Assembly: GCA_965652315.1 (NCBI GenBank) | Contig: CBFGVZ010000001.1 | Location: forward strand, 2,147-66,146 | Length of the DNA: 64,000 nucleotides | Origin: an uncultured Saprospiraceae bacterium | Lineage (GTDB): Bacteria > Bacteroidota > Bacteroidia > Chitinophagales > Saprospiraceae | Reading direction: 5' to 3' | Shown: one piece after another, positions 2,381-3,922 of the stretch | Numbering within the stretch: the first letter of the stretch is position 1 | How the letters are laid out: each line of letters begins with the position of its first letter | Notes under the pieces: generated by a model | Seen by the model: the letters and a program-made list of their open reading frames with translations, nothing else | Told to the model about the DNA's origin: nothing | The model's database searches: none | Position numbers and translations under genes: made by a program

Positions 2381-2458
2381 TATAATAAAAATATCTTATA
2401 ACTTGTGAATATAGGTTTTTTGGTTTATATTGTAGAGGTATTAGAGAATTTGCCTATA
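2381..2458. promoter_or_regulatory. Array of three palindromic operator-like boxes (TATARG-N8-CYTATA) at 29-bp period upstream of satD
   Basis: 2381-2400 TATAAT-aaaaatat-CTTATA; 2410-2429 TATAGG-ttttttgg-TTTATA; 2439-2458 TATTAG-agaatttg-CCTATA. Each box matches 11/12 consensus positions and the last ends 22 nt before the ATG. Confidence 0.6.
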
Positions 2459-2480: not shown

Positions 2481-3152
2481 ATGGTATATGCAGTAATCAC
2501 AGGCGACATCGTACAGTCCACTTCCGAAAAGGATGGGAAGCGTAGTAATTTTCATGTAATCGATGAGATTCTGACGGGAGCGTTCGAAGTGATGACAGAA
2601 AAAAAATGGTTAAATGCGGAGGATTATGTATCTTTCCGGGGAGACAGTTTTCAATGTCTTTTGCCACCGGATAAAGGTCTGTTGGGAGCGTTGTTTATAA
2701 AGGCGGCACTAAGGGGAGGTATCGCATCGGATCCTCGCACGCCTTTACCCTGGTCCGGAAGTTGCCGGATGGTGGTGGGCATAGGTGAAGTCACATACCG
2801 GGCAGAACAGGTGAGCAAATCCAACGGTCCAGCCTTTCAAAGGTCAGGAAGAACCCTGGATGCTATGCCTCGGGATCATTATATCGATATCGTGACGCCC
2901 TGGGATGAGGTAAATGAAGAATTCGAACTGACGGCACGGTTTCTGGATATTATAGTGGAACGGCTCTGGACGAAAATATCTGCCCGAACGGCCTGGGTCC
3001 ATTTTCTTGAGGAATGGACTCAGCAGCAGCTGGCTGAACTATTCGGCATTTCCCAGCCGGCCATGCATCAAAGGATTCAGGGCGCTGAAATCGCTGTGCT
3101 GGATCATACGATCGAACGGTTCCAATCAACCATAAAAAAGCATTACATATGA
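2481..3152 (+). CDS. satD: SatD family protein (nucleotide-cyclase-like palm domain plus C-terminal HTH)
   Basis: Motifs ITGDIVQS, FRGDSFQ, RMVVGIG, NGPAFQRSGRTLD and the C-terminal HTH TQQQLAELFGISQPAMHQR. Confidence 0.85.
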   Translation: MVYAVITGDIVQSTSEKDGKRSNFHVIDEILTGAFEVMTEKKWLNAEDYVSFRGDSFQCLLPPDKGLLGALFIKAALRGGIASDPRTPLPWSGSCRMVVGIGEVTYRAEQVSKSNGPAFQRSGRTLDAMPRDHYIDIVTPWDEVNEEFELTARFLDIIVERLWTKISARTAWVHFLEEWTQQQLAELFGISQPAMHQRIQGAEIAVLDHTIERFQSTIKKHYI

Positions 3153-3922
3153 CATTTCCCGATCTTGATTTGATCCTTTGGCTTCTGGTAGCACACTTTA
3201 TGGGCGATTTTACTTTTCAGCCCGGATATTGGGTAGATGAAAAACGTCGACGTACGTGGAGAAGTCCGTTCCTGTATTATCACGTATTGGTTCATTTTCT
3301 ACTCGCTCTACTGGCCATATTATGGATGAGCGGAGGATGGAGTGGTGCAGGGGTATTGGGAGCAATCGTCATTGCGTTGGGCCACCTGATTTTTGATATG
3401 GCAAAAATATACTATGTCCGCTACATTGAGCGGGAATGGCACGAGATCGGACTTCAGCGAGGAGTGGTATTTGTGTGGGATCAGATCAGCCATATGATCA
3501 TTTTGATCCTGGTGGCTGCCTGGTTGCAGAACGTGCTCTGGATAGGAGAAATTTCTATATATCTGAACGATATATTGATAGTAGCACTGGGGTACTATGT
3601 AGTGATGTATCCCACTGCAGCCTTTGTAGAGTTGTCCACTCAGGATTGGCAATATGAAATTGAGACCCATCACAAGGATGAAGGATTGCCTCTGGCTGGC
3701 CGTACCATCGGCCAATTGGAACGCATCCTGGCGTTGACTTTTATTCTGATCGGTCAATATACGGCATTGGGTTTTCTCATCGGGGCCAAATCCATTTTCA
3801 GATTTGGAGACCTTTCCCGAGGATTGCACCACAGGAAAACAGAATATATCCTGATTGGCACCCTGTTGAGCTTTGCAGCAGTTGTGCTGATAGGTCTGAT
3901 CGTATCGTATTTTATCGCATAG
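3149..3922 (+). CDS. DUF3307 multi-pass membrane protein
   Basis: ATGA overlap with the satD stop. Motifs AHFMGDF.FQ, HVLVH, HLIFD, DQISH and a C-terminal AGRTIGQLER...AKSIFRF...EYILIGTLLSF block. Confidence 0.85.
   Translation: MTFPDLDLILWLLVAHFMGDFTFQPGYWVDEKRRRTWRSPFLYYHVLVHFLLALLAILWMSGGWSGAGVLGAIVIALGHLIFDMAKIYYVRYIEREWHEIGLQRGVVFVWDQISHMIILILVAAWLQNVLWIGEISIYLNDILIVALGYYVVMYPTAAFVELSTQDWQYEIETHHKDEGLPLAGRTIGQLERILALTFILIGQYTALGFLIGAKSIFRFGDLSRGLHHRKTEYILIGTLLSFAAVVLIGLIVSYFIA

Follow-up and report, generated by a model that had tools for sequence, protein, structure and literature searches.

How do bacteria use a protein that carries a DNA-binding domain behind a domain of cyclase fold, its metal ligands intact, and that has an obligate membrane partner? 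This question is raised by two adjacent genes in a stretch of 64,000 nucleotides (the window) from the genome of an uncultured Saprospiraceae bacterium (contig CBFGVZ010000001.1). The first open reading frame, ORF1, encodes a member of the SatD family, and the second, ORF2, a membrane protein with a DUF3307 domain. An original prediction, made from the sequence of the window, held that SatD makes or senses a nucleotide and that the DUF3307 protein is its membrane effector or a signal-degrading enzyme, in a stress or defence role. Here, we show using structure prediction, fold and profile searches, residue conservation and comparison of related loci that the N-terminal part of SatD matches the palm fold of class III cyclases, that the two genes are almost always found side by side, and that operator-like palindromes are strongly enriched in front of SatD genes. 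These results can be read as a self-regulated two-gene operon in which the palm domain of SatD would serve as a ligand-sensing switch, a reading to which we give about an even chance. The features on which the analysis rests are collected in Table 1.

A SatD-family gene pair with a cyclase-like fold

The ATGA overlap that was said to couple the two genes is confirmed, and the motifs quoted from ORF1 are all present: TGDIVQST, which holds D9, SFRGDSFQ, which holds D55 46 residues on, and RMVVGIGEV. Against the Pfam SatD model (PF16264), ORF1 scores 13.1 bits, below the gathering cut-off of 29, with only the helix-turn-helix part aligned. It is nonetheless homologous over 97–99% of its length to the PF16264 carriers P0018–P0024 (E 6e-32 to 2e-10), is recovered by a SatD family profile at E 2e-65, and has D9, R53-G54-D55, Q58, G100, G116 and S122-G123 in common with the PF16264 proteins. 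Because it falls below the Pfam cut-off and yet is homologous throughout with all family motifs, ORF1 is a divergent SatD-family member. With the SatD/SatE pair (PF16264 and PF11750), the window pair shares the two-gene layout, the motifs TGD, RGDSFQ, IGIG and SxG..F..SG, the C-terminal helix-turn-helix and a membrane gene directly downstream; it differs in that its SatD belongs to a divergent clade under the Pfam cut-off, has small insertions and carries Ser at position 94, where the family usually has Asp. SatD is named after the Streptococcus mutans sat operon, and SatE is presumably a DUF3307 protein. Searches of the literature library used here retrieved no functional study of SatD, SatE or DUF3307. 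In ORF2, DUF3307 (PF11750) is the only Pfam domain, and the closest named relatives come from Membranicola (68% identity) and Membranihabitans (48%), which marks the host as a Saprospiraceae-like Bacteroidota.

The pairing of SatD with the membrane gene is near-obligate, as the original prediction supposed. Among 80 genome loci seeded by SatD, the membrane gene lies directly downstream on the same strand in all 79 that could be tested, and no third conserved gene is found around the pair; one archaeal locus has the membrane gene about 1.1 kb downstream of SatD. Carriers of the pair include Flavobacterium palustre, Chitinophaga ginsengisoli and Fulvivirga kasyanovii. In a sample of 301 genomes of the phylum, 65 carry both genes, 8 a SatD-like gene alone, 5 the membrane gene alone and 223 neither (odds ratio 362, p 1.5e-50), and all 65 genomes with both have them adjacent, at match-to-match distances of 0 to 642 nt, mostly under 30. 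The distribution is patchy (22% of genomes, 36–41 of 144 genera), and the pair is absent from five other genera of the host organism's own family. A profile search of the SatD family found 3224 representative clusters, and the sample is mostly bacterial with at least one archaeal locus. The window pair is a divergent but ordinary chromosomal member of a catalogued gene-pair family.

The AlphaFold2 model of SatD, built with 23 homologues, has a mean predicted local distance difference test score (pLDDT) of 91.7 and a predicted template modelling score (pTM) of 0.90. Its topology is β1-α1-β2-β3-α2-β4, after which come a single helix, a single strand and a helical C-terminal half. In a Foldseek search of the PDB, nearly all of the top 50 matches are class III adenylyl or guanylyl cyclases, the Pycsar cUMP synthase PycC, GGDEF domains or Cas10/Cmr2 palms (two DosP entries were left unclassified), with a best E of 3e-4 and probabilities up to 1.00; 4wp9_B gives a template modelling (TM) score of 0.60 and a root-mean-square deviation of 3.1 Å over 140 columns. 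A profile of 121 diverse SatD proteins aligned by hhalign to one of 29 cyclase domains from genomes of the same order reaches a probability of 91% (E 1e-6), and HMMER with the SatD family profile finds the cyclases 3mr7 (E 4.9e-5) and Ma1120 (E 1.7e-4) in the PDB. It takes the family profile to reach these cyclases, as a PDB search with ORF1 as a single sequence returned nothing useful. Three independent routes thus place residues 1–140 of SatD in the βαββαβ fold of class III cyclases, GGDEF domains and Cas10 palms, in agreement with the cyclase or palm fold that had been suspected for the N-terminus.

The alignments concur in setting D9 on the first metal-binding Asp, D55 on the Asp of the GD motif and R96 on the Arg of RIGIHxG; this β4 Arg binds phosphate in cyclases (Arg484 of mammalian C1). 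In the 29 local cyclase domains, the counterparts of D9 and D55 are the invariant D13 and D57, and the Asp–Asp spacing is 46 residues in SatD versus 44 in these cyclases. Of the four pairings of SatD motifs with those of class III cyclases that had been proposed, three are thus reproduced by hhalign, and HMMER agrees. The fourth, of NGPAFQRSGRTLD with WGDTVNLASRME, is not recovered: hhalign, in local, low-MAC (maximum accuracy) and global modes, places the SatD helix 117–128 opposite the next cyclase helix and leaves the hairpin and the Asn/Arg helix of the cyclase without a counterpart. Conservation was scored in 170 members of the family with 3224 hits, chosen for the most part as single representatives of clusters at 50% identity. 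G54, D55, Q58 and G100 are found in all 170, D9, G116 and G123 in 169, R53 and S122 in 167 and R96 in 164, so that both Asp residues are conserved across the homologues as anticipated.

The other half of a cyclase site is not seen in the same alignments. The base-specifying Lys (KxxGD) and its Asp/Glu-Cys partner are not recovered: the column of the Lys corresponds to position 51 of SatD, occupied by Ser here and by Ile in most relatives. The cyclase segment with the transition-state Asn and Arg (GDxVNxAxR, helix α4) has no SatD counterpart in hhalign. Even under the register proposed originally, position 120 (Q120 here) would be Arg, Gln or His in the family, and position 124 (R124 here) would be Arg in only 82 of the 170. 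A Pfam scan of ORF1 found no match to PF00211 at E up to 1 and none to PF00990. SatD thus appears to keep the metal/triphosphate half of the cyclase site without the other half, and for want of a conserved base-specifying Lys and transition-state Asn/Arg we describe it as cyclase-like rather than as a demonstrated cyclase; the proposal that it makes a nucleotide found no support.

Compared with the class III cyclases (Ma1120, 4wp9; 3mr7; CyaC, 2bw7) and with PycC (7r65), SatD is alike in the fold, in the two Asp residues 44–46 apart and in the RxGIxxG Arg. It differs from them, beyond the missing Lys, Asn and Arg and the missing PF00211 match, in having only one helix and one strand after β4 and in its fusion to a helix-turn-helix. 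The likeness to GGDEF domains and Cas10/Cmr2 is that of the palm superfamily, with fold matches to 6eib, 4zmm, 3i5c and Cmr2. RGDSF of SatD aligns with GGDEF without a shift, R taking the place of the first G and S that of E; against this, PF00990 does not match, and the second acidic residue is Ser in the main family, although a sister family (below) has LGDEF. Unlike Cas10/Cmr2, SatD has neither a second palm nor a CRISPR context. GGDEF domains proper are rare in this group: a set of 61 genomes from the order has only 2, and the genome studied here has none.

Operator-like arrays upstream of SatD

The C-terminal helix-turn-helix that had been noted in SatD is supported by sub-threshold matches to sigma-70 region 4 in Pfam and NCBIfam (TIGR02937, E 8e-4, residues 143–202), by a match of the family profile to a DeoR helix-turn-helix (E 5.8e-4) and by the helices of the model. 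We considered and rejected a pair of extracytoplasmic function (ECF) sigma factor and anti-sigma factor, as SatD has a region 4-like helix-turn-helix only, an N-terminal palm fold and palindromic DNA sites.

In the 80 genome loci, the regions upstream of SatD genes hold conspicuous 20-bp palindromes, often in two to four copies. The pattern TATAR-N10-YTATA has a density of 4.18 per kb within the 200 nt that precede SatD and of 0.035 per kb elsewhere, an enrichment of about 119-fold; 38 of the 80 loci have at least one site and 26 at least two. Across related loci, the start-to-start spacing of the sites has a sharp peak at 28/29 bp with echoes at 56–58. In the 64-kb window itself, the pattern is found exactly twice, both times upstream of ORF1 (at 2381 and 2410), against an expectation of 0.12 for the window, but as the pattern was chosen after the palindromes had been noticed this count is no blind test, and the enrichment across loci is the stronger evidence. 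The relative with 80% identity (L122) keeps both window sites and has a third one 29 bp further on, TATCAGGAAAATGGCTTATA, at a position matched by the degenerate third site of the window, and in a relative with 63% identity (L124) four sites follow one another at exactly 29 bp. The half-sites also vary with the recognition helix of the protein: QPAxHKR helices go with TATAACC and xQR helices with TATAAG[CGT], and the window helix ISQPAMHQRI falls in the latter class.

Operator enrichment, the 28/29-bp spacing and the covariation of helix and half-site, taken together, argue for binding of SatD to its own upstream region as the simplest reading, and for autoregulation of the pair, as the original prediction had proposed.

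The conserved part of the membrane partner

The model of ORF2 (pLDDT 91.4) is all-helical, with eight membrane-length helices, and neither sequence nor fold searches of the PDB gave a significant relative. Comparison with solved and viral structures likewise gave no significant full-length match to the DUF3307 protein, the phage matches being short and confined to the N-terminal half. Each of the four helices of the DUF3307 domain carries one i/i+4 polar pair (H16/D20, H45/H49, H79/D83 and D111/H115, with Q24 and Q112 in addition), and these residues are conserved in 78–79 of 80 partners, with the exception of H49 (43 of 80). By the positive-inside rule (KRRR at 32–35, RK at 228–229), this His/Asp cluster would lie in the half of the membrane that faces the cytoplasm.

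The remainder of ORF2 contains a three-helix module that carries no annotation, in which G188, E191, R192, K214, R218 and E232 are invariant in 80 of 80 partners. Four kinds of variants separate this module from the DUF3307 domain. First, in one lineage (G018) the entire His/Asp cluster is gone, but SatD and an intact C-terminal module remain. Second, in the genomes that had seemed to hold an unpaired SatD, the gene belongs to a sister family with the motifs I[FL]MGDVVxSS ... TITLGDEFQG, in which both Asp residues are kept and R53, R96 and S122-G123 are lost. In five of the six sister-family loci checked with enough flanking sequence, a membrane protein of 106–126 aa follows directly downstream, and these small partners match only the C-terminal half of the long DUF3307 proteins (E 3e-10 to 1.6e-3), none of them the N-terminal half. 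Third, the DUF3307 domain occurs by itself in proteins of 115–139 aa in other genomes and in phage proteins of 94–120 aa. Fourth, in the two genomes of this kind that were read (G218 and G119), an intact long DUF3307 gene with no SatD follows thiH/thiF-like genes, and a third genome of the genus likewise has no SatD match. On account of these four kinds of variants, the conserved companion of SatD-like proteins is the C-terminal three-helix module and not the annotated Pfam DUF3307 domain. The view of DUF3307 as the effector therefore needs revising, since SatD-like proteins always keep the C-terminal module and not the His/Asp domain. A link between the absence of a partner and loss of the Asp pair in SatD-like genes was considered and rejected as well: only one genome (G056) has lost both Asp residues, and the others carry the sister family with both Asp residues and a small partner.

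Several loci show these variants individually. The sister family is found in other genomes of the phylum at L143:3187-4145 and L144:3248-4184 and at L120, L121 and L134. At L118:4039-5398 the membrane protein of the pair has none of the His/Asp residues of the DUF3307 cluster and keeps the C-terminal module, and the pair adjoins a small gene for a helix-turn-helix protein and a gene that resembles those of DNA methyltransferases and has an NPPF motif. A degenerate SatD-like gene at L119:3926-4552, with both Asp residues replaced (by K and N), has no membrane partner and is followed by a gene for a soluble 179-aa protein and a ferritin-like gene. Orphan long DUF3307 genes, intact and encoding 228 aa, lie directly after thiH- and thiF/moeB-like genes at L129:1514-2200 and L130:237-923, in species whose congeners carry the SatD pair. 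The stand-alone phage DUF3307 proteins in BFVD (94–120 aa) include A0A7R7IAL7, A0A8E5NR09 and A0A1S6UAT4 (Serratia phage BF), with TM scores on the target of 0.64–0.71 against the N-terminal half of ORF2.

Table 1. Features of the gene pair and its upstream region, with positions in the window.
Feature	Position	Strand	Basis
ORF1 (SatD), 223 aa	2481..3152	+	
ORF2 (membrane protein), 257 aa	3149..3922	+	
ATGA stop/start overlap joining ORF1 and ORF2	3149..3152	+	
SatD residues 1-140, predicted minimal cyclase-homology (palm) domain; D9, R53-G54-D55, R96, G100, G102, G116, S122-G123	2481..2900	+	AlphaFold2, Foldseek, hhalign, HMMER, conservation
SatD residues 165-204, sigma-70 region 4-like helix-turn-helix, recognition helix ISQPAMHQRI	2973..3092	+	Sub-threshold Pfam/NCBIfam matches, DeoR match, model helices
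Operator-like palindrome 1, TATAATAAAAATATCTTATA	2381..2400	+	TATAR-N10-YTATA
Operator-like palindrome 2, TATAGGTTTTTTGGTTTATA, 29 bp after site 1	2410..2429	+	TATAR-N10-YTATA
Degenerate third site (tentative), TATTAGAGAATTTGCCTATA, spaced 29 bp from site 2 and separated by 22 nt from the start codon	2439..2458	+	Read from sequence
ORF2 residues 9-126, DUF3307 domain, four helices	3173..3526	+	Pfam, E 1.9e-25
ORF2 residues 175-257, three-helix module without annotation	3671..3919	+	Conservation, variants, sister family

Sensor, synthase or restraint

What could such a pair do? In the reading that we favour, SatD, probably as dimers, would occupy the three 20-bp sites that lie as an array just ahead of its own start codon, and the occupancy of the array would set the dose of SatD and of the translationally coupled membrane protein, with repression as the likely direction. 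The palm domain would be the switch, and its likeliest ligand a Mg- or Mn-bound nucleotide; the half-site of two Asp residues and an Arg that it keeps binds a divalent metal and a nucleotide triphosphate in real cyclases. The output would be the eight-helix inner-membrane protein, possibly in direct contact with SatD through the C-terminal module. Such an arrangement resembles TetR–TetA, the ArsR/SmtB-type czrA–czrB and cadC–cadA in logic only, as an autoregulated system with palindromic operators and the regulator ahead of a membrane protein; it differs from these repressor-first operons in the unrelated fold of SatD, in the unusual arrays of two to four sites at a fixed 29 bp and in a membrane protein without a known transporter fold. 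In Streptococcus pyogenes, satD is an accessory gene and yet tolerates no transposon insertions (PMC11323703), which fits a repressor of a harmful gene product. Harm from the membrane protein is not universal, however, because orphan membrane genes exist without SatD.

A number of observations weigh against this sensor reading. Near-invariance of metal-binding Asp residues, as in SatD, typifies active enzymes more than pure sensors, and the orphan long DUF3307 genes indicate that tight repression is not always needed. The operator sites of the window are AT-rich and imperfect, with site 1 matching at six of seven positions and the half-sites of the third site agreeing at only four of six, for which reason we treat the latter as tentative. 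The covariation of recognition helix and half-site is confounded by shared ancestry. A scan for promoters and terminators gave counts no higher than in shuffled sequence, so that no promoter was placed, and a search for RNA evidence of co-transcription found the stretch in DNA metagenomes only, from soil, rhizosphere and bovine or manure samples.

Could SatD instead be an active nucleotidyl cyclase or oligonucleotide synthase, whose product gates the membrane protein in a Pycsar- or CBASS-like stress response or antiphage suicide, with the helix-turn-helix serving autoregulation only? We consider this unlikely. It would account for the near-invariance of the Asp pair and the β4 Arg, and it draws on PycC (7r65) among the top fold matches, on a partner that is a membrane protein, on the patchy distribution and on the type I restriction genes that abut about 3 of 75 related loci. 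The Lys position is Ser or Ile, however, the Asn/Arg positions vary or have no counterpart, and the partner has no known nucleotide-binding domain. In contrast to Pycsar and CBASS, neither ORF1 nor ORF2 has a significant match among the PADLOC models, the window pair lies in no defence island, and ORF2 has no recognised nucleotide-sensing domain.

The genomic setting speaks against a defence role in the same way. SatD relatives at 80%, 63% and 60% identity keep the same neighbours, in the order acetyl-CoA synthetase, SSF permease, DUF4212, the pair, outer-membrane efflux protein, HAD hydrolase, thioesterase, ArsC and MiaA, and the coding G+C of the pair matches that of its flanks; the pair is old at this locus, stably inherited and native in composition. 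The genes immediately flanking the pair in about 75 loci, 140 in all, have 182 Pfam families among them, none of which occurs in more than 8 proteins. The S and R subunits of type I restriction systems occur 3 times each, which is above chance but a small minority, and more than 90% of the related loci lie, like the window locus, among housekeeping genes. Single-sequence tblastn found no match to the pair in 50,697 phage records and only three in plasmids, of which one is a Segatella copri plasmid, where the pair lies beside an insertion sequence (IS) element, and two are large replicons filed as plasmids. With no PADLOC match, no defence neighbours in the window, synteny down to 60% identity and native G+C, the defence role of the original prediction found no support, and the combined defence and second-messenger reading is speculative.

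In a further catalytic reading, the palm domain would make an undescribed nucleotide signal or nucleotidylated product that is read by the three-helix module (GxxER...K..R...EY). Its probability is low in our estimate, but if true it would define a new signalling family of at least 3224 protein clusters. More generally, about a fifth of the sampled Bacteroidota genomes carry the pair, and a ligand or product of SatD would represent a new use of the cyclase fold, as the sensor of a transcription factor or as a new messenger synthase, and would give a function to DUF3307 at the same time. The operator array (2381-2458) offers a defined DNA probe, and the conserved partner is now pinned to the C-terminal three-helix module rather than to the annotated domain.

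Alternatively, the pair may be a cassette resembling addiction or toxin–antitoxin modules, in which SatD restrains a harmful membrane protein by repression or binding and loss of SatD kills the cell. The apparent essentiality of the accessory satD gene in S. pyogenes fits this scenario as well, as do the tight translational coupling with the regulator first, the multi-site operator arrays, which suggest strong repression, and the Segatella copri plasmid with its neighbouring IS element. We nevertheless judge it improbable, as intact long membrane genes survive without SatD in the two genomes that were read, with a third of the same genus also having no SatD match, the pair in the window shows stable inheritance, conserved synteny and native G+C, and the conserved metal/nucleotide site would be left unexplained.

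The least probable explanation is a metal-homeostasis module, in which the two-Asp site of SatD senses a divalent cation and the His/Asp-lined DUF3307 protein is a metal transporter or channel under its control: four helices that each present an i/i+4 His/Asp pair at similar depth, and a repressor-first layout with palindromic operators like that of czrA–czrB or cadC–cadA, are set against a sister family and a G018 variant that lack the His/Asp domain and yet keep SatD and the C-terminal module, and against an ORF2 that matches no known transporter in fold or sequence. In cation-diffusion-facilitator proteins the transport site consists of HxxxD pairs, which those of ORF2 may resemble.

Among the related loci, one pair (L131:499-2302) lies beside an AAA-ATPase gene and a gene for a 230-aa protein, which resemble defence candidates made up of an ATPase and a small partner. 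In the window, the minus strand of 1-1959 encodes an SSF-family permease, open at the window edge, and a small DUF4212 membrane protein, both read in the direction away from the SatD pair; because relatives have acetyl-CoA synthetase adjoining, this looks like an ordinary acetate-uptake operon. The AT-rich intergenic region of 520 bp between this operon and the pair contains, on the side nearer to the divergent DUF4212 gene, a direct repeat of 23 nt (2025-2047 and 2098-2120) and an inverted repeat of 16 nt (2141-2156 / 2159-2174).

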